Assembly: GCF_003018255.1 (NCBI RefSeq)
Contig: NZ_CP027440.1
Direction: 5' to 3' (one strand)
DNA from: Escherichia coli
Lineage (GTDB): Bacteria > Pseudomonadota > Gammaproteobacteria > Enterobacterales > Enterobacteriaceae
Length of the DNA: 64,000 nt
The notes under the pieces are model-generated. The model saw only the letters and a program-made list of their open reading frames with translations. It was not told the origin of the DNA and did no database searches. Shown in pieces: positions 4,984-43,305 of the stretch; positions within the stretch are counted from its first letter, which is position 1; the number at the start of each line of letters is the position of its first letter. Position numbers and translations under genes: made by a program.

Positions 4984-5059
4984 GGCCCTTTAGCTCAGTG
5001 GTGAGAGCGAGCGACTCATAATCGCCAGGTCGCTGGTTCAAATCCAGCAAGGGCCACCA
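4984..5059 (+). tRNA. tRNA with CAU anticodon, ileX/ileZ-like (Ile2 lysidine type; Met cannot be excluded)
   Basis: Hand-folded cloverleaf: acceptor GGCCCTT/AAGGGCC, D arm GCTC..GAGC, anticodon loop CTCATAA, T arm GCTGG-TTCAAAT-CCAGC, encoded CCA. Closely resembles my recollection of E. coli ileX. Confidence 0.85.
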
Positions 5060-5068
5060 TATCACATA

Positions 5069-5145
5069 CCGCCATTAGCTCATCGGGATAGAGCGCCAGC
5101 CTTCGAAGCTGGCTGCGCGGGGTTCGAGTCCTCGATGGCGGTCCA
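5069..5145 (+). tRNA. tRNA-Arg (UCG anticodon)
   Basis: Hand-folded cloverleaf: acceptor CCGCCAT/ATGGCGG, D arm GCTC..GAGC, anticodon stem CCAGC/GCTGG with loop CTTCGAA, T loop GGTTCGAGTCC, encoded CCA. Confidence 0.8.
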
Positions 5146-5906: not shown

Positions 5907-6164
5907 TGTGCTGTGAAGTGTTAAATCCCTCACAATTCAGTAAGTTGACAGTTGCCTGTCAGACTGAGCATTTGTTAAAAAAATTTCGCATGGTGAATCC
6001 CCCTGTGCGGAGGGGCGACTGGTGAACGGTATGATCTCTTTGATGATCGTAAGCGAGAATACGCGGGTTTGGTGTCACCGGGCTGAACTCACCGGGAGGC
6101 ACCCGGCACCATGCTCATGGTGATACAGAAATGCGGCTTCAGCCCCTCTCCGGAGGGGCTTTCT
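5907..6164 (+). ncRNA. solitary copy (unit A) of the ~250-bp structured-RNA unit
   Basis: Same four conserved boxes as the 7885-8904 array. Closing stem 5988-5995 GCATGGTG / 6107-6114 CACCATGC. Terminator GCCCCTC-TCCG-GAGGGGC at 6141-6157. Confidence 0.5.
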
Positions 6165-6170
6165 TATGGA

Positions 6171-6239
6171 CAAAAAAAGCCCGCGCTGGGAGACGCGGGC
6201 GGCAAGGAATAAACAATAAAACGTGAAGTAATACTTCAA
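6171..6239 (-). ncRNA. candidate small RNA, copy 1 (promoter to intrinsic terminator)
   Basis: Minus strand: TTGCGC (6275-6270), 18-bp spacer, TATTAT (6251-6246), then ~69 nt ending in GCCCGCG-TCTCCCAG-CGCGGGC plus U7. Paralogue at 8911-8989. Confidence 0.5.
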
Positions 6240-6547: not shown

Positions 6548-7273
6548 ATGGATGTTGCCTGCTCTGTGGTCCTGATTCGCTATCCGATAGATATTTTTCT
6601 TGAAAAAGAAAAAGTTTCACTCGATGCCGGAAGTGTTATGCTTGTTGCCAGAAATATAAGAGGGCTTTTCTGTGCTTATGCCGACAGAGTGAAAATGGCA
6701 GATATAAGTAACAGCGTCGTCAATCAGTATCTGGAAAGGGAGTGTGAACTGACGGAGTATACACCGACAAAAATGCCTCTTTATTTGATGTCTGATATTT
6801 ACAATACGGAACTGGCGGAGGCTTTAATAACCCAGCATAGTGAATCCAGTGATACTTTGAAGGATTTCTCTGTTATAACCGCATTTTCATGTATCTCCTT
6901 ATTTGCAACAGACAGACGTCTGCCATTATTTTTGTCCGGTGCTGTAAATAATATCAGCTGTAAAGTAAGGGCTATAATTCAGACCGACATATCGGCAGGC
7001 TGGATGCTTGGTGTGATTGCATTACAATTGCATATGAGCGAAAGCTTGTTGAAGCGAAAACTTAAGGATGAAGGTTATAGCTTTAGTCGGTTGTTGCTGG
7101 AGGAGCGAATGCGTGTTGCTGTTAATCTTGTATGTTTCCAGCGAGAGTGTGGACAAGCGATAGCGGAAAAATGTGGTTACTCAAGTAAGTCCTACTTCAT
7201 TTCTGTATTTCACCAGTATTATGGTGCACCACCTGAGAGCTATGCATATTTGCAGAAAGCAGACGTTATCTGA
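6548..7273 (+). CDS. AraC/XylS-family transcriptional regulator (prophage Psr/PatE-like)
   Basis: 241 aa. The C-terminal double HTH is typical of AraC (LLKRKLKDEGYSFSRLLLEERMRVAVNLV...IAEKCGYSSKSYFISVFHQYYGAPP). AT-rich moron. Confidence 0.8.
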   Translation: MDVACSVVLIRYPIDIFLEKEKVSLDAGSVMLVARNIRGLFCAYADRVKMADISNSVVNQYLERECELTEYTPTKMPLYLMSDIYNTELAEALITQHSESSDTLKDFSVITAFSCISLFATDRRLPLFLSGAVNNISCKVRAIIQTDISAGWMLGVIALQLHMSESLLKRKLKDEGYSFSRLLLEERMRVAVNLVCFQRECGQAIAEKCGYSSKSYFISVFHQYYGAPPESYAYLQKADVI

Positions 7274-7884: not shown

Positions 7885-8904
7885 TGGAAATGTTAAATGA
7901 CTCACAATTCGGTTGATGGGCTATTGTCTGATCGATGGAAGTCTTGTAAAAACGAGCCAGCATAGTGAATCCCCCTGTGCGGAGGGGCGTCTGACATGGT
8001 CTCCATAGCGATGGTCACAATACGCAGATTCAGTAGTCAGGCTGAATCTACCGGGAGGCACCCGGCACTATGCTGCTTATGGTGTATACATAGCGATCGG
8101 CCCCTCTCCGGAGGGGCTTTTTTTGTGCGGGAAAAGGCTGTGTTGTTAAGTGTTAAATTCCTCACAGTTCGGATGGTTGATGCTTGCCTGTCTGAGGGGG
8201 AGTTGTTAAAAAAGTTCTGCATGGTGAATCCCCCTGTGCGGAGGGGCGACTGGTGTGATTTGCATCTTTTCTGTTGTAGGCAATGCAAACGCGGGTTCAG
8301 GGACGCCAGACTGGACTCACCGGGAGGCACCCGGCACCATGTTCATGATGATACAGATACGCAGTGTCAGCCCCTCTCCTGAGGGGCTTTTTTATGCAGG
8401 AAAAACGCTGTGTTGTGAAATGTTAAATTCCTCACAGTTCAGATGGTTGATGCTTGCCTGTCTGAGGGGGAGTTGTTAAAAAAGTTCTGCATGGTGAATC
8501 CCCCTGAGCGGAGGGGCATATCAGCGCAGGTGTTTCTACTCTATCCTTTCTGTGCGGGTTCAGGTGCTGATACTGAACTCACCGGGAGGCACCCGGCATC
8601 ATGCATATGGTTAACAGACACGTAGCGAAGCCCCTCTCCGGAGGGGCTTTTTTATGCAGGGAAAAGGCTGTGTTGTGAAATGTTAAATTCCTCACAATTC
8701 ATGAGGTTGATGATTGTCTGATTGATGAGGAGTTTGTTAAAAAAAACGGGCATGGTGAATCCCCCTGTGCGGAGGGGTGATATCGTATCATTTCCTGTGT
8801 GGCCGACTGATATCACGGACATTTGTTCACCGGGAGGCACCCGGCACCATGCAGTATACAGAGATTAGGCATACATCCAGGCTCCTCATCGCAGGAGCCT
8901 TTTT
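7885..8904 (+). repeat. tandem array of four ~240-270-bp structured-RNA units (B 7885-8124, C 8125-8393, D 8394-8653, E 8654-8904)
   Basis: Each unit has box 1 TGTTAAAT.CCTCACA(A/G)TTC, box 2 TTGTTAAAAAA..GCATGGTGAATCCCCCTGTGCGGAGGGGC, box 3 CACCGGGAGGCACCCGGCACCATG, and an intrinsic terminator with a T-run. The ORFs crossing the units differ in frame and length. Confidence 0.85.
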
Positions 8905-8910
8905 ACATGT

Positions 8911-9137: not shown

Positions 9138-11102
9138 ATGGCATTTAAACACTACGATGTGGTCAGGGCGGCATCGCCGTCAGACCTTGCTGAACGACTG
9201 ACACAAAAACTGAAGGAGGGCTGGCAGCCATTTGGCAGTCCGGTGGCCATCACGCCTTATACCCTGATGCAGGCCATTGCGGCGGAAGGTGATGTCACCA
9301 CACCAGTGGCGGTGACCGGTAATGAGGGTAAGGTGGTGGCTGTCAGTGCCACCAGCGACCCGGAGTATTACTTTGTTGTGGTTCTGGCAGGGCAGTCAAA
9401 TGGCATGTCGTATGGTGAAGGTCTTCCGCTGCCGGAGACATATGACCGTCCGGACCCGCGCATTAAGCAGCTGGCGCGCCGCAGTACGGTGACACCGGGC
9501 GGTGTTGCCTGTAAATATAACGACATCATTCCGGCGGACCATTGTCTGCATGATGTGCAGGACATGAGCCGTCTTAACCATCCGAAAGCGGACCTGTCAA
9601 AGGGGCAGTACGGTACCGTGGGGCAGGGGCTGCATATCGCCAAAAAATTGCTGCCGTTTATACCGGCGAATGCGGGCATTCTGCTGGTTCCGTGCTGTCG
9701 TGGTGGTTCAGCGTTCACCACCGGAGCTGATGGCACATACAGTGACGCGAGTGGTGCCTCGGAGAATTCAACCCGCTGGGGTGTGGACAAGCCGCTGTAT
9801 AAGGACCTTATCGGTCGAACAAAAGCAGCACTGAAGAAGAACCCGAAAAATGTGCTGTTTGCCGTGGTGTGGATGCAGGGGGAATTTGATTTTGGCGGTA
9901 CGCCGGTAAATCACGCAGCACAGTTTGGTGCGCTGGTTGATAAATTCCGTGCAGACCTGGCGGATATGGCAGGCCAGTGCGTCAGTGGCTCTGCTGGCAG
10001 TGTTCCCTGGATATGCGGGGACACGACGTATTTCTGGAAGCAGAAGAACGAATCCACGTACCAGACGGTGTACGGCAGCTATAAAAACAAAACGGAAAAG
10101 AATATCCATTTCGTACCGTTCATGACGGATGAGAACGGGGTGAATGTGCCGACGAACAAACCGGAAGAAGACCCGGACATTCCGGGTATCGGGTATTACG
10201 GTTCGAAATGGCGTGACAGCTCAGCCACCTGGACGTCACAGGACAGGGCGAGCCATTTCAGCACCTGGGCACGCCGGGGGATTATTTCCGACCGTCTGGC
10301 AACGGCGATTCTGGTGCACGCCGGGAGAACCGCTGAATTCATTACCGGAAAACAGCCTGATATGGTGAAGCCCACCGTACCTTCCGGTGAAGGTCCGGAG
10401 AGAGAGGCGGAAGCCCCGGTCAGTAACCGAACCCTGATGAGTCTGCTGGCATCCGGCGAAGACCTGGCATCACAGGGCTGGCGCTATTATCACAAACCGG
10501 CGGGCGGAGACAGTGTTAACAAAAACATTGCTGAAGCGGTGGTCAGTGATGCGGGGGCTACGGGAGGTAAGGCCCTGCAACTGAACAAACCGGAAAACCA
10601 CATCTGGTTTCTGGAGCATGATGCAGCCGGACAGGGTGCGGAGTTACTGAAGAAGGGCGGACGTGTGAGCGTACGGTTTAAGTTGCCGGGTTCACTGGTG
10701 CCGAATCAGTTTGCCCTGGGCATTTACTGGCAGTTGTCGTCCCTGCCGGAGGGGGTGACGCTGTCAGGAGAAGGTAACGATATGCTGATGTCTTTCTTCC
10801 TGCAGACGGATACGACGAACCTGAACGCGATGCATCACAGGAAGCCGAATGCGAAGCTGGATACATTCGGGGTCTTTGATAACGGATGGCACACGCTGGC
10901 TTTTGAGTTTGCCGGAAACAACAGCATTCAGGTGACACCAGTACTGGATGAGAAACGGGGAGCGGCGTTCACACTGGTGAAGTCACCGGCATCGGGGGCG
11001 GCGGACAAACTGCAACTGACCGATATATCAAAATCGGCGACGTATACGCTGCTGATTGACAGCATTGCGGTGGAAGTGAACAGCACAGACACTGCGGCAT
11101 GA
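9138..11102 (+). CDS. NanS-p-type prophage sialate O-acetylesterase (DUF1737 + SASA esterase + C-terminal lectin-like domain)
   Basis: 654 aa. The N-terminus MAFKHYDVV...GWQPFGSP is DUF1737-like. The block VVLAGQSNGMSYG is a GDSL/SASA-type catalytic motif. It sits upstream of the lysis genes, as for nanS-p genes of EHEC lambdoid prophages. Confidence 0.8.
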   Translation: MAFKHYDVVRAASPSDLAERLTQKLKEGWQPFGSPVAITPYTLMQAIAAEGDVTTPVAVTGNEGKVVAVSATSDPEYYFVVVLAGQSNGMSYGEGLPLPETYDRPDPRIKQLARRSTVTPGGVACKYNDIIPADHCLHDVQDMSRLNHPKADLSKGQYGTVGQGLHIAKKLLPFIPANAGILLVPCCRGGSAFTTGADGTYSDASGASENSTRWGVDKPLYKDLIGRTKAALKKNPKNVLFAVVWMQGEFDFGGTPVNHAAQFGALVDKFRADLADMAGQCVSGSAGSVPWICGDTTYFWKQKNESTYQTVYGSYKNKTEKNIHFVPFMTDENGVNVPTNKPEEDPDIPGIGYYGSKWRDSSATWTSQDRASHFSTWARRGIISDRLATAILVHAGRTAEFITGKQPDMVKPTVPSGEGPEREAEAPVSNRTLMSLLASGEDLASQGWRYYHKPAGGDSVNKNIAEAVVSDAGATGGKALQLNKPENHIWFLEHDAAGQGAELLKKGGRVSVRFKLPGSLVPNQFALGIYWQLSSLPEGVTLSGEGNDMLMSFFLQTDTTNLNAMHHRKPNAKLDTFGVFDNGWHTLAFEFAGNNSIQVTPVLDEKRGAAFTLVKSPASGAADKLQLTDISKSATYTLLIDSIAVEVNSTDTAA

Positions 11103-30400: not shown

Positions 30401-30702
30401 TGGACACGCCCACGTACTTTGCCTTTGCAAAAGGGGCAGGGCTGATGGGGGAGGCCGGACCTGAAGCCATAATGCCCCTGACCCGGGCAGCGGATGGTTC
30501 ACTCGGCGTGCGTGCGGTGGGCCGCATGAACGGCAGTGCGGGTCTGGTGTATTCTCCGGTGTACCACATCGCCATTCAGAATGACGGCGCTAACGGGCAG
30601 ATAGGGCCGGAAGCGGCGGGCACCCTTGTGCAACTGATTGACCAGCGGGTACAGGCGGTGATGTTATCCATGCGTCGTGACGGAGGAATGCTGAGTGGAT
30701 GA
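27460..30702 (+). CDS. tape measure protein (H-like)
   Basis: 1080 aa. Ala/Gln-rich helical protein downstream of the G/GT pair. Confidence 0.9.
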   Translation: MATLRELIIKISANSQSFQSEIQRASRMGSEYYRTLQNGGRQAAAAAREQRRALAELNSQLTEIRASAVGMTGAFAGAFATGHLISLADEWSSVNARLKQASQSSDEFSSSQKVLMDISQRTGTAFSDNAALFARSAASMREYGYSADDVLKVTEAISTGLKISGASAAEAGSVITQFSQALAQGVLRGEEFNSVNESGDRIIRALAAGMGVARKDLKAMADDGQLTADKVVPALISQLGILRDEYAAMPETVSDGITKVENAFMAWVGGANEASGATKTLSGALNGVAGNIDTVATAAGVLVAVGVARYFGNLASGAMSATAGLVTAARNEVALAEAQLRGTQIATARARAAVYRAQQAVAAARGTEMQIAAEARLAVTQERLNRNIAARTAAQNALNSTTAVGSRLMSGALGLVGGVPGLVMLGAAAWYTLYQSQEQARESARQYALTIDEIAHKTPSMSLPEASDNEGRTREALTEQNRLIDEQASRVKSLQEKIAGYQYVLANPGWTTGNGFMINHLTSVKTVTEELAQATEQFAVEQSRLAQMQEKAQSIQDVLAGLEERRVVLIRQQAAEQNKAYQSLLVMNGQHTEFNRLLGLGNELLQQRQGLASVPLRLSQATLDDKQQSALNNTERQLALSRLKGEEKERARLGYAADDLGLVGDMYQEARQRYIRNSMEAWRNNEANKPKSRGEKSETEKAEDSFSRLLKQQKEQLALAGKNTELAKLKYQTSQGELKTLTEIQKQELLRNAALIDQKKIREQLRAREETLKNDNADARASNDAELLGYGQGERIRERMRELQQIRDSYRQKDADLQSQYQAGDISEDFYRQALAQNAQYLSERLKEQEAFYARSDEQRADWQKGLQEGGSNWVDSASDYASQAAQLATDGISGMVNNITEMLNGNKVEWRSWAASILQEISKVLMNAAIVNGIKMAANSMSGAGGFFGSIGNWLGGAVANAKGGVYTSANLSAYSNSIVDTPTYFAFAKGAGLMGEAGPEAIMPLTRAADGSLGVRAVGRMNGSAGLVYSPVYHIAIQNDGANGQIGPEAAGTLVQLIDQRVQAVMLSMRRDGGMLSG

Positions 30703-31036
30703 GATTAAGACCCTTCACTGGTGTCCCCGGGAAGGGATGCAGGTGACGGAGAAACCGTCGGTGATGACGGTGAAGTTTGGCGACGGTTATCAGCAGCGTC
30801 GTCCGGCAGGACTGAATGCGCAACTGAAGACCTTTCAGGTGGTTTTTCGGGTGACAACGGATGCTGAGCGGGAGGCACTGTCCGCGTTTCTGTCATGGCA
30901 TGGTGGTTACCGGGCTTTTTTGTGGAAGCCCCCGAAACATAACCGGACGGTCAGGGTGGTGTGCCGGGAGTGGAGTATTACGGATAACGCCCGGTACAGT
31001 GATTTCAGTTGCACGATAGAGCAGGTAGTTAGATGA
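30695..31036 (+). CDS. minor tail protein M
   Basis: 113 aa, GTG start overlapping the H stop. VKFGDGYQQRRPAGLNAQLKTFQV and FLSWHGGYRAFLWKPP match remembered lambda gpM. Confidence 0.9.
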   Translation: MDEIKTLHWCPREGMQVTEKPSVMTVKFGDGYQQRRPAGLNAQLKTFQVVFRVTTDAEREALSAFLSWHGGYRAFLWKPPKHNRTVRVVCREWSITDNARYSDFSCTIEQVVR

Positions 31037-31116
31037 GAATTATCCTATAAATCATTCTTTAGTGTTTAGTTGTTAATTATTTTTAATCTGTCTTGTCAGA
31101 AAGTGCGAAATCGATC

Positions 31117-31146
31117 TTGCATTTACATTTTGTTACGTAATATAAA
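31117..31146 (+). promoter_or_regulatory. candidate promoter of the porin moron
   Basis: TTGCAT, 18-bp spacer, TATAAA, in a very AT-rich 200-bp leader. Confidence 0.4.
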
Positions 31147-31234
31147 TTGAACTAAGAATTTGTATTAAAATATTTTAATTTTTGTTCATGACATCTGAAT
31201 GCATGAATAGTTCAGTTTAAATAAGGATTAAATC

Positions 31235-32398
31235 ATGAAAAAAATGACAGTGGCACTTTCTGCTGTAGCAGTTGCAGTGATGTTTGCTGCGGGGGCGCAG
31301 GCAGCAGAAGTTTATAATAAAGATGGTAATAAACTGGATCTTTACGGGCGTGCAACCGCTCTGCATTACTTCTCGGATGATAAAGGTAATGACGGAGATC
31401 AGACTTATGCTCGTCTCGGCTTTAAAGGCGAAACGCAGATTAATGATCAACTGACCGGATTTGGTCAGTGGGAATACCAGTTCTCTGGTAACAAAACGGA
31501 ATCTGAAGGTTCCGCGGGAAATAAAACCCGTCTGGCATTTGCAGGTCTGAGATTTGCTGATGTTGGTAGCATTGATTACGGACGTAACTACGGTATTGCT
31601 TACGATGTCGGATCATATACTGACGTACTGCCAGAGTTTGGTGGTGATGGCTGGACTCAGACCGATAACTTTATGACTGCCCGAACTTCCGGAGTTCTGA
31701 CTTACCGTAATACAGATTTCTTTGGGCTGGTTGATGGTCTGAATTTTGCGGCGCAGTATCAGGGCAAAAATGAGCGCGATGACCTCCAGAAGGCCAATGG
31801 TGATGGGTATGGTTTCTCAGCCAGCTATGAGTTTGATGGTTTTGGTTTTGTGGCTGCGTATACCAAGTCAGATCGTACCAATAAGCAGGTTCAGGGACTG
31901 AATGGTAGCAAAACTATTGAAATCAAAGATCCTTTAACTGGGGATGTGACTGAAAAAGAAGTGGTCGTTGATTCCGGCAGCGTTGCAAAAGGTAAACATG
32001 CTGAATTCTGGGGAACTGGTCTTAAATATGATGCCAATAACCTGTATCTGGCAGCAGTGTATTCAGAAACCCAGAATATGACGACCTTTGGTGATCAAGG
32101 TGTTGCGGATAAAGCTCAGAATATCGAAGCCGTTGTTCAGTATCAGTTTGATTTTGGTCTGCGTCCGTCTCTGGCCTACCTTCAGTCCCGAGGACAGGAT
32201 GTTATGGTTGGTGGTGTGAACCATGGCGATCAGGATCTGGTTAAATATATTGATGTCGGTGCGACTTATTACTTTAACAAGAATATGTCCACCCATGTTG
32301 ATTATAAAATTAACCTGATTGAGGAAAGTGAATTTACCCGGAAAGCCGGTGTTGCGACAGATAATATCGTTGCTGTGGGTATGACTTATCAGTTCTGA
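31235..32398 (+). CDS. general-diffusion porin of the OmpC/OmpF/PhoE/NmpC family
   Basis: 387 aa. Signal peptide ...AQA|[15 protein letters not shown], then [21 protein letters not shown], and the C-terminal ...VAVGMTYQF typical of enterobacterial porins. Confidence 0.9.
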
Positions 32399-32572
32399 TT
32401 ATTGCTGATAAGTATAATAAATACGGGCCGTCAGCCCTTACTGGCGGCCTGTATCAATGAAAACACAGTTTTCATTGGTCACTGCGATCAGCAATTGCCA
32501 TCTGGCATGTGTTGATTTAACTTTCTGTTATTACCTTTATTGGTTTTATTTTAAATTGGACTTTTATTGTTC

Positions 32573-32596
32573 GGGGCGCGGTTGCGCCCCTTTTTT
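32573..32596 (+). terminator. strong intrinsic terminator 12 bp upstream of tail gene L
   Basis: GGGGCGC-GGTT-GCGCCCC hairpin followed by T6. Confidence 0.8.
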
Positions 32597-32608
32597 ATGG
32601 GCGGATAT

Positions 32609-33307
32609 ATGCAGGATATTCACGAAGAAAGCCTGAACGAGTCGGTTAAGTCAGAGCAGTCACCGCGGGTGGTGCTCTGGGAAATCGACCTGACGGTGCA
32701 GGGCGGTGAGCGGTATTTTTTCTGCAATGAGCTGAATGAAAAAGGGGAGCCGGTGACCTGGCAGGGGCGTGAATATCAGGCGTACCCGATTGAGGGGAGT
32801 GGCTTTGAGATGAACGGAAAGGGCAGCAGTGCCCGCCCGTCGCTGACAGTGTCCAATCTTTTCGGCCTTGTCACCGGGATGGCGGAGGATTTGCAGAGCC
32901 TGGTGGGGGCCACGGTGGTCCGTCGCCGGGTGTATGCGCGTTTTCTGGATGCGGTGAACTTTGTGGCAGGCAATCCTGAGGCAGACCCGGAGCAGGAGCT
33001 GACGGACCGCTGGGTGGTGGAGCAGATGTCAGCGCTGACGGCCATGACGGCCTCGTTTGTGCTGGCGACACCGACGGAGACGGACGGTGCGCTGTTTCCC
33101 GGTCGCATCATGCTGGCGAACACCTGTATGTGGGATTACCGGGGCGATGAATGCGGGTATAACGGTCCGGCAGTGGCGGATGAGTTCGACAACCCCACCA
33201 CGGATATCCGGAAGGACAGATGCAGTAAATGCATGCGCGGGTGTGAGATGCGCGGCATGGTGGCTAATTTCGGCGGTTTCCTTTCCATTAATAAACTTTC
33301 GCAGTAA
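32609..33307 (+). CDS. minor tail protein L
   Basis: 232 aa from ATG 32609 (MQDIHEESLNE...). Near-colinear with remembered lambda gpL, including the terminal FGGFLSINKLSQ. Confidence 0.92.
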   Translation: MQDIHEESLNESVKSEQSPRVVLWEIDLTVQGGERYFFCNELNEKGEPVTWQGREYQAYPIEGSGFEMNGKGSSARPSLTVSNLFGLVTGMAEDLQSLVGATVVRRRVYARFLDAVNFVAGNPEADPEQELTDRWVVEQMSALTAMTASFVLATPTETDGALFPGRIMLANTCMWDYRGDECGYNGPAVADEFDNPTTDIRKDRCSKCMRGCEMRGMVANFGGFLSINKLSQ

Positions 33308-34603: not shown

Positions 34604-35440
34604 AAAAAAATCCCGCAGTGTTCGGCGCCTGCGGGAAGAGATACGAAGATTAACTTTAAGGAATTTTTCATTATTCTGGCAGATGAACTGTAACGCAGCG
34701 TGATTATGAGCACTACAGTCAGTGTGCGGAAATGTGAATAAACTCAGAATTTTTATTCACCGGAAGAGGATTGCCGGATATCGGTGGCAGAGGACAGAAG
34801 GCATCATGCCGGGTTCAGGGGATAAAAAAATCCCGCAGAACTCCGTGCTGCGGGAAGAGAACGATGTTGACTAACCTGTTGGCGTTTTATTTTTATTGAC
34901 CCGCAGAAACTGTAACCTGCCGGAATGCACTCTGCCACGGAGAATGACGGAAAATGTGAAGAAAATCAGAGTTTTTATTTATCCCGTGCATTCGTCTCTG
35001 GCGACAGAGTGGCGTCAGTAATGTCCGTGATACTGAGGGGGGAATTAAAAAATCTCCCGTAATACACCTGGATATTGACGGGAGAAACGAATAGTCACCT
35101 TAAGGAGTAGTTTTGATTATTGCCTGTAATCAGCGGGCGAATTGTAACGTATGGTGATTATGAGTGCCACAGGTAATTTGCAGAAATGTGAATAAATTCA
35201 GAATTTTTATTCACAGGAAGGGGCTGCGGGATATTGGTGGCAGAGGACAGAAAATATCAGGCCGGGTTTAAGGGATAAAAAAATCCCGCAGAGTTAGCGG
35301 AGCTGCGGGAAATAAACGATGAAGATTAACGTTATGGAGTTATTTTTCAGGCATCAAAAAAGTAACGCAGCGTCATTATTGCGGCTACAGGCAATTTGCA
35401 GAAATGTGAAGAATTTCAGAAATTTTATTCCGTCATGACA
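34604..35440 (-). repeat. four tandem ~190-230-bp non-coding repeat units between I and J, each ending in a minus-strand intrinsic terminator
   Basis: Units at ~34604-34823, 34824-35045, 35046-35273 and 35274-35440. Terminator hairpins at 34611-34636, 34831-34856, 35053-35085 and 35284-35310, each with 6-8 A on the plus strand just upstream (a U-run on the minus strand). The shared core on the minus strand is TTCACATTT..GCA....CATAAT..CG.TGCGTTAC. Confidence 0.8.
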
Positions 35441-35470
35441 CAGGCACCCTCCGGGGTGCCTGTTGTTTTT
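35441..35470 (+). terminator. plus-strand intrinsic terminator 44 bp upstream of J
   Basis: CAGGCACCC-TCCG-GGGTGCCTG hairpin followed by TTGTTTTT. Confidence 0.7.
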
Positions 35471-39398: not shown

Positions 39399-39539
39399 AT
39401 GTCGCAAAAACCGTTAAAAACCACCGTGATTTGTATCACGGTAGTGCTCATTATCTGGATCACCCACACTTCACTGTGCGAGTTCCGGTTCCGGATAGCG
39501 GGCGCGGAGATTGCGGCGTTCTTACAGTGTAAGCGGTAA
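39399..39539 (+). CDS. Hok/Gef-family type I toxin (46 aa, below the ORF-track cutoff)
   Basis: Read by hand: MSQKPLKTTVICITVVLIIWITHTSLCEFRFRIAGAEIAAFLQCKR. TM helix plus the family motif SLCE(I/F)R(Y/F)R..G..E(V/I)AAF. SD GGAG 8 nt upstream. Confidence 0.8.
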   Translation: MSQKPLKTTVICITVVLIIWITHTSLCEFRFRIAGAEIAAFLQCKR

Positions 39540-42099: not shown

Positions 42100-42660
42100 T
42101 TAAAACCGCATCAACCGTTCTACCAGTTGTTCTTTACGGGCAACGATCCAGCCGTGTTGCTCCAGATAAAATTTAAACCGCTCCAGAGTGCATACCATCG
42201 CATCGGCGGGGACTTTTTCTGTGAACTCTACCTGACCGTGTTTATCAAAGTGGATCAGTAATGCGCATCCATCATTTGGGGTGGGGGAGTTTTGTGTTGC
42301 TGGTGGTTGTTTATGGCTGAAATAACAGTCTTCCAGTTTTTCGAACACTTCCCACGCCTGATCGGTTTCGAGCATTTTTGCATGGCGGGCAGCGCCACGT
42401 TCTGTCCAGAGGATAAGGGAGCGGGCATTTTTACCAACTAACCCGATTGTTTCGGGTCTGTTCTTAAACTCGCGTAATTCGTTTTTTTCAATTTTAAAGT
42501 AATGCTTTCCTACCACGAATCGCGTCGTGTTGTTCAGAAAGTTATCAGAAATGTTTTTGATTTTTGTTCCGTATAACTGCGCCAGAAGTTCAGTTGTAAT
42601 AACGGGGATCTGGTTGTGGGTGATTGCAGGAAGAGTGTCGACAGAAATTTGAGTGGTCAT
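42100..42660 (-). CDS. ORF6N / KilA-N(Bro-N)-superfamily antirepressor-like protein
   Basis: 186 aa from ATG 42660 (SD GGAG 8 nt upstream). NQIPVITTELLAQLYGTKIKNISDNFLNNTTRFVVGKHYFKIEKNELREFKN is typical of the ORF6N DNA-binding domain. Confidence 0.7.
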   Translation of the reverse strand: MTTQISVDTLPAITHNQIPVITTELLAQLYGTKIKNISDNFLNNTTRFVVGKHYFKIEKNELREFKNRPETIGLVGKNARSLILWTERGAARHAKMLETDQAWEVFEKLEDCYFSHKQPPATQNSPTPNDGCALLIHFDKHGQVEFTEKVPADAMVCTLERFKFYLEQHGWIVARKEQLVERLMRF

Positions 42661-42714
42661 AACGATAACTCCGTACATTTGAAAATTATCGCCACCTTCA
42701 GGTTCCAATCATCA

Positions 42715-42791
42715 TGGTGGCGAACTGTGCGGGGTTGGAACTACCGGGTACGGAAACCGGCGAGCCTTTCGGCTCCCCCACACAGCCCGCC
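42715..42791 (-). ncRNA. C4-type antisense RNA (P1/P7 immI-like), 77 nt
   Basis: 16-bp closing stem GGCGGGCUGUGUGGGG/CCCCGCACAGUUCGCC followed by ACCA. Inner hairpins are GAGCC-GAAA-GGCUC and CCGG-UUUCCGUAC-CCGG. Single-stranded AGUUCCAA and the loop are complementary to sites flanking the element on both sides. Confidence 0.65.
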
Positions 42792-42824
42792 ATAAATCGC
42801 GAATGTGACTGTGCAAACGATATG

Positions 42825-42901
42825 AAAAAAGACGCGGGCGCGTCTCATATCGCTCCGTAAACATCCGGGGTTCCAATCCCGACGCCAGATTTTGCTGACG
42901 C
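42825..42901 (-). ncRNA. short terminated leader RNA carrying the a1/b1 decoy sites
   Basis: From the predicted TSS (~42901) to the terminator GACGC-GCCC-GCGUC plus U6 (42846-42825). Contains GAUUGGAACC (42878-42869) and UUACGGAG (42860-42853). Confidence 0.5.
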
Positions 42902-43130: not shown

Positions 43131-43247
43131 GTCTGGTACATGGATATTGATACCACTGCCAATTATAAACTGGGCGGTGCACAGCAACACGATAGCGTAC
43201 GCCTCGATCCGTGGGTGTTTATGTTCTCAGCAGGATATCGTTTTTAA
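43131..43247 (+). pseudogene. ompW: 3' fragment of ompW (last 38 codons), separated from the rest of the gene by the prophage
   Basis: Translates to VWYMDIDTTANYKLGGAQQHDSVRLDPWVFMFSAGYRF*, the remembered K-12 OmpW C-terminus. The upstream in-frame sequence hits TAA at 43119-43121. Confidence 0.85.
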
Positions 43248-43261
43248 TTCCGCACAAAAAT

Positions 43262-43281
43262 GACCCCGTAATTACGGGGTC
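43262..43281. terminator. bidirectional terminator between ompW and yciE
   Basis: Perfect palindrome GACCCCGTAATTACGGGGTC. Confidence 0.7.
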
Positions 43282-43305
43282 AATAAGGACATGGTATAAA
43301 GGGTA

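Follow-up and report, generated by a model that had tools for sequence, protein, structure and literature searches.

A distinct clade of phage-encoded porins between tail genes M and L of lambdoid prophages: a putative porin-swap cassette

Introduction

Why does a lambdoid prophage carry a complete porin gene inside its tail operon, between two genes that are adjacent in its relatives? The question is raised by a 64,000-nt stretch of Escherichia coli DNA (contig NZ_CP027440.1; this whole stretch is referred to as the window). It contains a lambdoid prophage adjoining the trp operon and includes, at positions 31027-32608, a 1.58-kb AT-rich insert between tail genes M and L that contains an intact porin gene and a strong terminator. 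As judged from sequence, the general diffusion porin encoded by the insert is intact, is maintained by selection and belongs to a clade of its own. The 3′ untranslated region (3′UTR) of the insert displays predicted complementarity to the translation-initiation regions of ompC/ompF. The insert is probably a porin-swap moron, i.e. a lysogenic-conversion cassette that trades the major porin of the host for a phage-encoded one.

Taken separately, porins borne by phages, morons in tail operons and antisense RNAs linked to porin genes all have precedents. The distinct porin clade, its exclusive address between M and L, the hypervariable extended loop L5 and the two types of 3′UTR seed are new; full-text literature searches returned no account of a porin gene placed between these two tail genes. 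Over the query region, the window shows 100% identity to the bovine E. coli strain OkiPb01682 from Okinawa, in which the RefSeq annotation of the porin gene is 'porin OmpC'. This label conceals both the prophage origin of the gene and its distinct lineage.

Boundaries and organization of the insert

The ends of the insert were determined by alignment with PPompW, an insert-free prophage found at the same integration site, in which the stop codon of M and the start codon of L overlap as TGATG. This contiguous junction fixes both ends (31027 and 32608). The initial annotation, which described a 1.57-kb AT-rich insert extending from 31037 to 32608, was right about the base composition and the 3′ end; the 5′ end had to be moved to 31027. 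The insert contributes the final three codons and the stop codon of M (31027-31036) and also provides L with a new Shine-Dalgarno sequence (SD), GGGCGGA (32599-32605), directly past the terminator. The GC content is 0.32-0.48 over ~30900-32700 versus 0.53-0.63 in the flanks. Neither transposon-like ends nor target duplications were seen when the junctions were compared.

The complete porin gene and the strong terminator that had initially been noticed are both found (Table 1): the open reading frame (ORF) is intact and is flanked by gpM-like and gpL-like ORFs. The insert lies downstream from a 1,080-aa tape-measure gene. It has three of the features characteristic of a moron: location between genes that are adjacent in relatives, its own terminator and a deviant base composition.

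Table 1. Features of the porin insert and of the flanking tail genes (positions in the window). SD, Shine-Dalgarno sequence; UTR, untranslated region; A2, six-allele alignment of the upstream region.
Feature	Positions	Strand	Evidence and remarks
gpM-like minor tail protein gene	30695..31036	+	Pfam PF05939, E=3.2e-33
Whole cassette (putative moron): regulatory region, porin gene, structured 3′UTR, terminator, SD for L	31027..32608	+	Junction alignment, GC dip
Upstream block TGTCTTGTCAGAAAGTG	31089..31105	+	Invariant columns in A2; TTGACA in some alleles
OmpR-box-like site	31116..31141	+	17 nt CTTGCATTTACATTTTG (31116-31132) identical to the K-12 ompC upstream region
Candidate core promoter	31147..31176	+	-35 TTGAAC 31147-31152, 18-nt spacer, -10 TATTTT 31171-31176
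5′UTR segment AGTTCAGTTTAAA	31209..31221	+	Complementary to 32550-32562; followed by SD AAGGA (31223-31227)
Porin gene, 387 aa	31235..32398	+	Signal peptide 31235-31303 (…AQA, then AEVYNKDG); C-terminus …TYQF
Hypervariable extended loop L5, residues ~219-251	31889..31987	+	Gap versus all solved porins; predicted beta-hairpin
Three conserved hairpins	32421-32454, 32455-32477, 32486-32517	+	Covariation; invariant single-stranded GGTCACTGC between the second and the third
Putative anti-porin element AACUUUCUGUUAUUACCUUUAUU, single-stranded	32519..32541	+	Complementary to ompC mRNA ~-31 to -8, upstream from the start codon (hand alignment)
3′UTR segment TTTAAATTGGACT	32550..32562	+	Just 5′ of the terminator; complementary to own 5′UTR 31209-31221
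Intrinsic terminator	32573..32596	+	GGGGCGC GGTT GCGCCCC + T6; 7-bp all-GC stem 32573-32590; kept in alleles
gpL-like minor tail protein gene	32609..33307	+	Pfam PF05100, E=1.1e-92; RefSeq annotation of the identical prophage

Identity of the porin

The protein matches Porin_1 (PF00267) end to end (profile positions 1-337 of 337, E=5e-143, Pfam) and the solved enterobacterial porins of the Protein Data Bank (PDB) with E from 1e-131 to 1e-97. An AlphaFold2 (AF2) model (mean predicted local distance difference test score, pLDDT, 71.5) was compared by Foldseek with OmpF (1opf) and OmpC (2j1n), with a template modelling (TM) score of 0.85; both the model and the comparison predict a 16-stranded beta-barrel. 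The L3 constriction motif LPEFGGD, the pore arginines (YARLGF, KTRLAF, TYRN), the signal peptide already noted in the initial annotation (here read as MKK…AQA) and the terminal Phe are all present and are invariant in a 37-sequence alignment.

The cassette porin passes the cut-off of the NCBIfam subfamily 'porin OmpC' (504.9 vs 484 bits) and scores under the PhoE and OmpF equivalog cut-offs. In a neighbour-joining (NJ) tree based on 343 ungapped columns, the cassette porins constitute their own clade, sister to OmpD/NmpC/Lc (72-75% identity on these columns); OmpC, OmpN, PhoE and OmpF of K-12 are more distant (63-65%). The cassette porin is not an orthologue of OmpC: it shows 64% identity to K-12 OmpC, falls outside the OmpC/OmpN branch and is encoded by a tail operon, not by the micF-ompC locus. 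It is not a member of the NmpC/Lc/OmpD clade either: it occupies a separate branch and shows 67-68% identity to all 42 porins from phage records and to the 49 NmpC-type loci from IMG/VR. Since the tree places the porin in a separate clade, the RefSeq name reflects the broad subfamily model only.

Conserved barrel and diversified loop L5

The porin ORF is intact in every allele examined. Outside L5, the ratio of nonsynonymous to synonymous substitution rates (dN/dS) is 0.03-0.07, with dS ranging from at least 1 up to saturation; within L5, it is 0.1-0.7. These comparisons indicate strong purifying selection on the barrel. The barrel, L1-L4 and L7-L8 are almost invariant between alleles; L6 is up to 8 residues longer in some of them. 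L4 is short, as in PhoE/OmpF, and L5 is long.

A divergent surface-loop segment had initially been proposed around residues ~215-260. It is real and is delimited to residues ~219-251, which align with the ~200-208 region of OmpC/OmpF, which we take to be L5 according to the OmpF numbering. Two strands are predicted in this loop (223-231 and 238-246, pLDDT 60-80, AF2). Its length varies from 7 to 32 residues, with 13 length/sequence types among 41 loci of the clade. Comparison of the window with its 95% relative (L017) gives a dS of 0.93 in L5 and of 0.11 in the barrel, which argues for an exchange of L5 by recombination. The long L5 is retained in alleles showing just 80-88% DNA identity and thus is not junk.

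Distribution and location of the cassette

The cassette was found with at least 80% coverage in ~101 of the 5,426 complete E. coli genomes; the complete M-porin-L stretch is present in 90 of these 5,426 genomes. Its alleles show 100, 95, 92, 88 or 80% nucleotide identity. It is carried mainly by Shiga-toxin-type strains isolated from cattle or humans, and also by commensal strains from mice and healthy humans. Every inspected locus has the organization M-porin-L, across at least three types of tail module and Citrobacter farmeri. The types of module are those with an HK97-TLTM-type tape measure, the lambda type (U/V/G/T, 853-860-aa tape measure) and TMP_2+TMP_4. The clade is represented by 31 loci in IMG/VR: L lies beside the porin gene in every one of them and M in 30, the last contig beginning at the porin gene.

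The porin insert is absent from the 50,697 deposited phage records, and M and L are adjacent in all the 260 matching ones. In IMG/VR, 80 loci have an L with at least 95% identity; M and L are contiguous in 74 of them and separated by the porin in 6, and no other cargo was seen in the M-L slot of these loci. Since 74 of 80 nearly identical modules are contiguous and 260 phage records lack the insert, the porin is a presence/absence polymorphism and not a fixed part of the module. The contrary possibility, that of a common fixed feature of this tail module with no promoter activity, had been put forward with the initial annotation as a refuting outcome.

The location was also said to be unusual, the known phage porins of the NmpC/Lc type being placed elsewhere. 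This is correct as regards NmpC-type sites: none of the 49 NmpC-type IMG/VR loci has M or L within 3 kb, and those in phage records are not in tail regions. The location is not a one-off, since the cassette is recurrent, old and diversified.

A decayed remnant (M′-porin-L′; L006-L009, E. coli drafts; porin at 6001-7113 of L006) retains an intact porin ORF. Its product (P0020) shows 78% identity and has a different L5; the remnant lies in a genomic island, next to Rop, a gene encoding a Tle1-like lipase and insertion sequence (IS) elements. The terminator of the remnant has decayed and its anti-porin element is kept. In copies that seemed to belong to 'non-phage islands', M is still represented by ~55 nt of its 3′ end and L by fragments. 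These copies are thus decayed prophage remnants in which the porin gene alone is intact; as a source of the gene they are ruled out by these M and L remains, and they derive from the phage cassette.

These data bear on the simplest explanation, according to which a porin gene of host origin, acquired through illegitimate recombination, is a passive or decaying hitch-hiker. The AT-rich foreign composition of the insert and the absence of the cassette from deposited phage records would fit such an accident. However, the ORF remains intact in alleles diverged up to synonymous saturation, with the low dN/dS given above. The promoter region, the 5′UTR and the 3′UTR are also conserved, with covariation, and the position is the same across tail-module lineages and genera. 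Because of the selection data, an inert passenger is essentially excluded.

Upstream regulatory region

The ~200 nt upstream from the porin gene are conserved between alleles together with the gene (alignment A2). Within this region, CTTGCATTTACATTTTG is identical to a stretch located upstream from K-12 ompC that is presumably the OmpR C1 box. The local alignment with the ompC upstream region has a score of 34 (shuffle mean 20.7; 0.2% of shuffles reach 34). The best alignment of the ompF upstream box, although non-significant, falls on the same site (15 of 18 positions). When up to 2 mismatches are allowed, TTTACATTTTGWWACA has a single site in the 64 kb (0.16 expected). TTTACAT is invariant in all alleles.

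TTGCAT-18-TATAAA had first been proposed as the promoter. Both hexamers exist (31118-31123 and 31142-31147), but TTGCAT falls within the 17-nt ompC-identical stretch and varies between alleles, and the promoter scan did not call this pair. TTGAA (31147-31151) and AATATTTT (31169-31176) are invariant in A2, and TTGAA[CT]-N-AWTATTTT is present in 35 of 41 loci of the clade. A weak activator-dependent promoter, TTGAAC-N18-TATTTT, is therefore preferred. The OmpR-like box would thus abut the -35 of this candidate promoter. The upstream block is a candidate site for a further regulator or a candidate alternative -35.

This organization is relevant to another explanation, in which the porin is a lytic accessory made mainly late, together with the tail genes, from the Q-dependent promoter. 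Instead of acting in the lysogen, it would fill the envelope or vesicles, hide receptors on debris and thereby protect the released progeny, or help lysis. The cassette is indeed embedded in the late tail operon, in the same orientation, and the window encodes a Q antiterminator; since the insert gives L its own SD, read-through transcription would stay productive. Against a mainly late role, a terminator and a conserved regulatory region that includes an OmpR-type box are both part of the cassette, its porin is intact and under purifying selection in a remnant devoid of tail genes, and lysogens express Lc/NmpC, the porins of the sister clade (PMC9928086, Table 1; PMC12197685). A lytic accessory is improbable.

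Structure and complementarities of the 3′UTR

The 200 nt that follow the porin stop codon fold much better than shuffled sequences (z=-7.0). Nine diverse alleles support the three hairpins and the terminator, with compensatory double changes at 12 pairs. The observed covariation was reached by 0 of 500 shuffles, and pairing was lost when the partners were slid. No Rfam family was found in the cassette, either in the scan of the whole window at the gathering threshold or in that of the region at E up to 10. TATAAT (32413-32418) was considered as an internal promoter for a 3′UTR RNA and rejected: it has no -35 and other alleles do not conserve it.

The longest invariant run of the 3′UTR is UUAUUACCUU (32528-32537), which is single-stranded and located between the third hairpin and the terminator. 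This core is present in all 40 clade 3′UTRs that retain the terminator. The surrounding element is predicted to pair with the ompC leader through 13 bp, a small internal loop and 8 bp, thereby covering the SD. Among all 31,984 32-nt windows of both strands of the 64 kb, the element ranks first for duplex formation with the ompC leader despite its AT-richness: its energy is -28.3 kcal/mol, whereas the windows average -9.7 kcal/mol with an sd of 3.2. When the full 3′UTR is cofolded with the ompC leader, the hairpins are kept and the element is paired (ΔΔG -18). This target is well conserved: of the 5,426 E. coli genomes, 5,361 have an ompC leader with at least 99% identity.

Two forms of the element were distinguished among the 40 clade loci with a terminator. 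A 'MicC-like' form (group 1) is found in 22 of them. Another form, UUUUCAUUUUAUUACCUUCAU (group 2), is found in 17; it resembles the MicF seed and has its best pairing with the ompF start region. The predicted duplexes reach -25 to -30 kcal/mol for group 1 with ompC and -19 to -24 kcal/mol for group 2 with ompF (3′UTR ends being set by the terminator pattern for these clade-wide energies). Computed likewise, the MicF-ompF duplex has an energy of -23.4 kcal/mol and that of the MicC core is comparable to those of the cassette. The cassette 3′UTR may lower OmpC/OmpF, and the repression of these porins that the initial annotation had only conjectured would then have a concrete candidate mechanism.

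A second complementarity involves the two ends of the cassette transcript. The 5′UTR and 3′UTR segments listed in Table 1 form 13 of 13 pairs in the window. Across seven allele types, 81 of 91 cells are paired, versus 13-56% when the segments are slid, and a compensatory U-A/A-U change between allele types supports the pairing. This complementarity could correspond to pairing of the mRNA ends, to autoregulation or to masking of the RNA until it is processed.

These observations can also be read more modestly. The cassette may be a moron whose sole contribution is one more porin, of use in permeability, antigenic variation or nutrient uptake. The hairpins would then only stabilise and terminate the mRNA, and the complementarity to ompC would be a relic of shared descent with porin leaders or with a MicC-like sequence, devoid of regulatory effect. 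The identity, the fold and the selection of the porin are solid; the covariation backs the hairpins and not pairing in trans; the resemblance to MicC is modest, since 1.5% of shuffles reach it. According to published statements, IpeX, the 3′UTR RNA of a related phage porin transcript, does not work by base pairing (PMC3617542, PMC10690425). Nevertheless, a relic does not readily account for the longest invariant run of the 3′UTR being a single-stranded anti-SD core, found in 40 of 40 loci and in the decayed remnant. The element is also the top ompC-complementary site in 64 kb, and the two allele groups match ompC or ompF as MicC and MicF do. A porin-only moron is a serious alternative, although rather unlikely.

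Proposed mechanism

In the porin-swap reading, the cassette would be transcribed in the lysogen from its own weak promoter, with the aid of OmpR bound to the ompC-type box. Dependence on OmpR would make it active in gut-like, high-osmolarity conditions. During lytic growth, Q-modified polymerase would read through the cassette. The MicC-like element of the 3′UTR, within the mRNA or after processing, would pair with the leader and ribosome-binding site of ompC; the MicF-like element of the second allele group would fit the start region of ompF. Translation of the host porin would drop while the phage porin is made, and the outer membrane would acquire a dominant porin with a different exposed surface. 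Phage and colicin receptors that depend on OmpC/OmpF would be lost or altered, antigenicity would be changed and permeability would possibly be modified.

A more specific version of this mechanism can be proposed tentatively, with less confidence than the porin swap itself. The cassette would be a two-component device for porin replacement. On the one hand, an RNA derived from the 3′UTR would silence ompC (at the MicC site) or, in group 2, ompF (at the MicF site) by base pairing. On the other hand, the mRNA would supply a replacement porin with a single exposed loop, L5, that recombination diversifies. IpeX would be a mimic of MicC, and the 5′UTR-3′UTR pairing would act as an autoregulatory or seed-masking switch.

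Comparison with IpeX both supports and weakens the base-pairing step. IpeX is the 3′UTR RNA of the porin transcripts lc (phage PA-2) and nmpC (DLP12) and lowers OmpC/OmpF (PMC8065619, PMC3333887, PMC12197685). The lc/nmpC 3′UTR is identical in PA-2 and DLP12. An element shared by the cassette and lc was spotted by eye, then tested by duplex prediction and local alignment. This IpeX element, AACCUUCUGUUAUAUAUUACCCUUUAUUUUU, is found in 48 of the 49 NmpC-type IMG/VR loci. It is predicted to form 15+9 bp with the ompC leader and SD, at the MicC site (-23 to -28 kcal/mol; L018 2690-2735 for PA-2 and L030 3366-3440, minus strand, for DLP12 of K-12). Only this distal element aligns between IpeX and the cassette 3′UTR (score 25, reached in 0.9% of shuffles). 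A blastn comparison of the cassette flanks with the PA-2 lc region gave chance-level short words alone.

Several points weigh against the mechanism. According to reviews, IpeX does not act by base pairing and is not complementary to ompC (PMC3617542, PMC10690425). This discrepancy makes the base-pairing step less certain: another part of IpeX may be the active one, or its complementarity may have escaped notice. If the reviews are right, the complementarity of the cassette element may not be its active feature. The duplex energies leave out Hfq and accessibility, and the whole-window scan against the ompF leader is uninformative, GC-rich pairings being dominant. Cofolding also pairs the 3′UTR with the cassette's own 5′UTR (ΔΔG -19.4), so the 3′UTR RNA may act in cis and not on host mRNAs. 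The promoter is weak: a consensus promoter scan called no site on the + strand at its threshold, and TTGAAC-N18-TATTTT matches 8 of 12 positions. Lastly, the C-terminal domain of the prophage J protein resembles lambda J about as much as it does a J variant whose structure was solved in complex with OmpC. This ambiguity gives no receptor call, and the cassette is thus not linked to the receptor of its own prophage.

Porins are the main route of entry of many antibiotics, receptors for many phages and colicins, and dominant surface antigens. If the porin swap is real, a single transfer of one mobile cassette would change antibiotic entry, receptors and antigens together. The natural alleles (two seed types, 13 L5 types) would be useful for studying co-evolution of a 3′UTR regulator and a receptor loop, and the cassette suggests a directly testable re-reading of how IpeX works.

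Other features of the prophage

The prophage is integrated in ompW; at its right junction, RefSeq annotates a truncated OmpW fragment (L001 32558-32683; ~43150-43290 of the window). Q (1725-2396) is followed by a DNA methylase gene and two tRNA genes (4984-5142). A gene encoding an AraC-family regulator (6548-7273) is located amid five copies of the small RNA (sRNA) STnc100 (one at 5959-6171 and four at 7931-8910), after which lies a sialate-esterase-like gene (9138-11102). The region of the AraC-family regulator is presumably the position where Shiga toxin (Stx) phages carry stx. The distal end of the prophage (42100-42708 and 42713-42901, both on the minus strand) comprises a C4 antisense RNA and the Hfq-binding RNA isrK, which adjoin a gene encoding an ORF6N-domain protein.

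Genes I and J, which are adjacent in lambda, are separated by an unannotated low-GC spacer of ~860 nt (34604-35462). It holds 3-4 diverged copies of a ~220-nt unit, each with a AAAAAAATCCCGCAG…CTGCGGGAA hairpin and a GAAATGTGAAnAAAnTCAGAATTTTTATTCAC motif; the last 190 nt alone are common to Stx phages. The spacer gave no Rfam match and no Tandem Repeats Finder call. Its units may be sRNA genes or regulatory repeats. A 46-aa Hok/Gef-type toxin ORF (39399-39539) is located between J and the side-tail-fibre gene. In some relatives (L002-L005, 1742-2155), a 137-aa ORF without Pfam match is found between T and the tape-measure gene; this site may be another moron slot of the tail operon.

Comparison with known systems

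Lc and NmpC are the closest known counterparts. They are phage-borne general porins with their own transcription unit, as the cassette porin presumably is, and form the sister clade; identity to the cassette porin is 67% over the full length and 72% when ungapped columns are used. The 5′UTR motif AATAGTTCA is common to both. The lc/nmpC 3′UTR resembles that of the cassette in having three hairpins, a U-rich element (…CUGUUAU..UUACC(C)UUUAUU…) and a GGGGCG…CGCCCC-U terminator. Lc/NmpC differ in their location in the Q-lysis region (DLP12 layout), whereas the cassette is always between M and L. The cassette further differs by its distinct clade, its extended hypervariable L5, its unrelated hairpin sequences and its two seed variants. 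Sites for CRP are annotated upstream from lc; no search for such sites was made in the cassette.

MicC, encoded next to ompN, and MicF, encoded next to ompC, are, like the putative RNA of the cassette, porin-linked RNAs that pair with the leader and ribosome-binding site of another porin gene. The cassette element covers the ompC site of the MicC 5′ end and aligns locally with nt 1-33 of MicC; the group 2 element resembles the MicF seed UUAUUACCGUCAU. However, MicC and MicF are encoded by separate, divergently transcribed genes, whereas the cassette element is located in cis, in the 3′UTR of a porin mRNA, and its regulatory role is predicted.

The chromosomal OmpC shares with the cassette porin its fold and family, the NCBIfam subfamily cut-off and the 17-nt OmpR-box-like stretch. 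They differ in sequence (64% identity to that of K-12, ungapped), in the lengths of L4 and L5 and in their locus (micF-ompC versus tail operon).

Other morons are found in the tail region of lambdoid phages, namely lom of lambda and the superinfection-exclusion gene gp15 of HK97. Like the cassette, each is an extra gene of foreign composition between tail genes that adjoin each other in relatives, presumably expressed in the lysogen and affecting the cell surface or phage entry. Their products are a small 8-stranded Ail/Lom protein and an inner-membrane exclusion protein, respectively, whereas the cargo of the cassette consists of a 16-stranded porin of the trimeric type and a predicted regulatory RNA.

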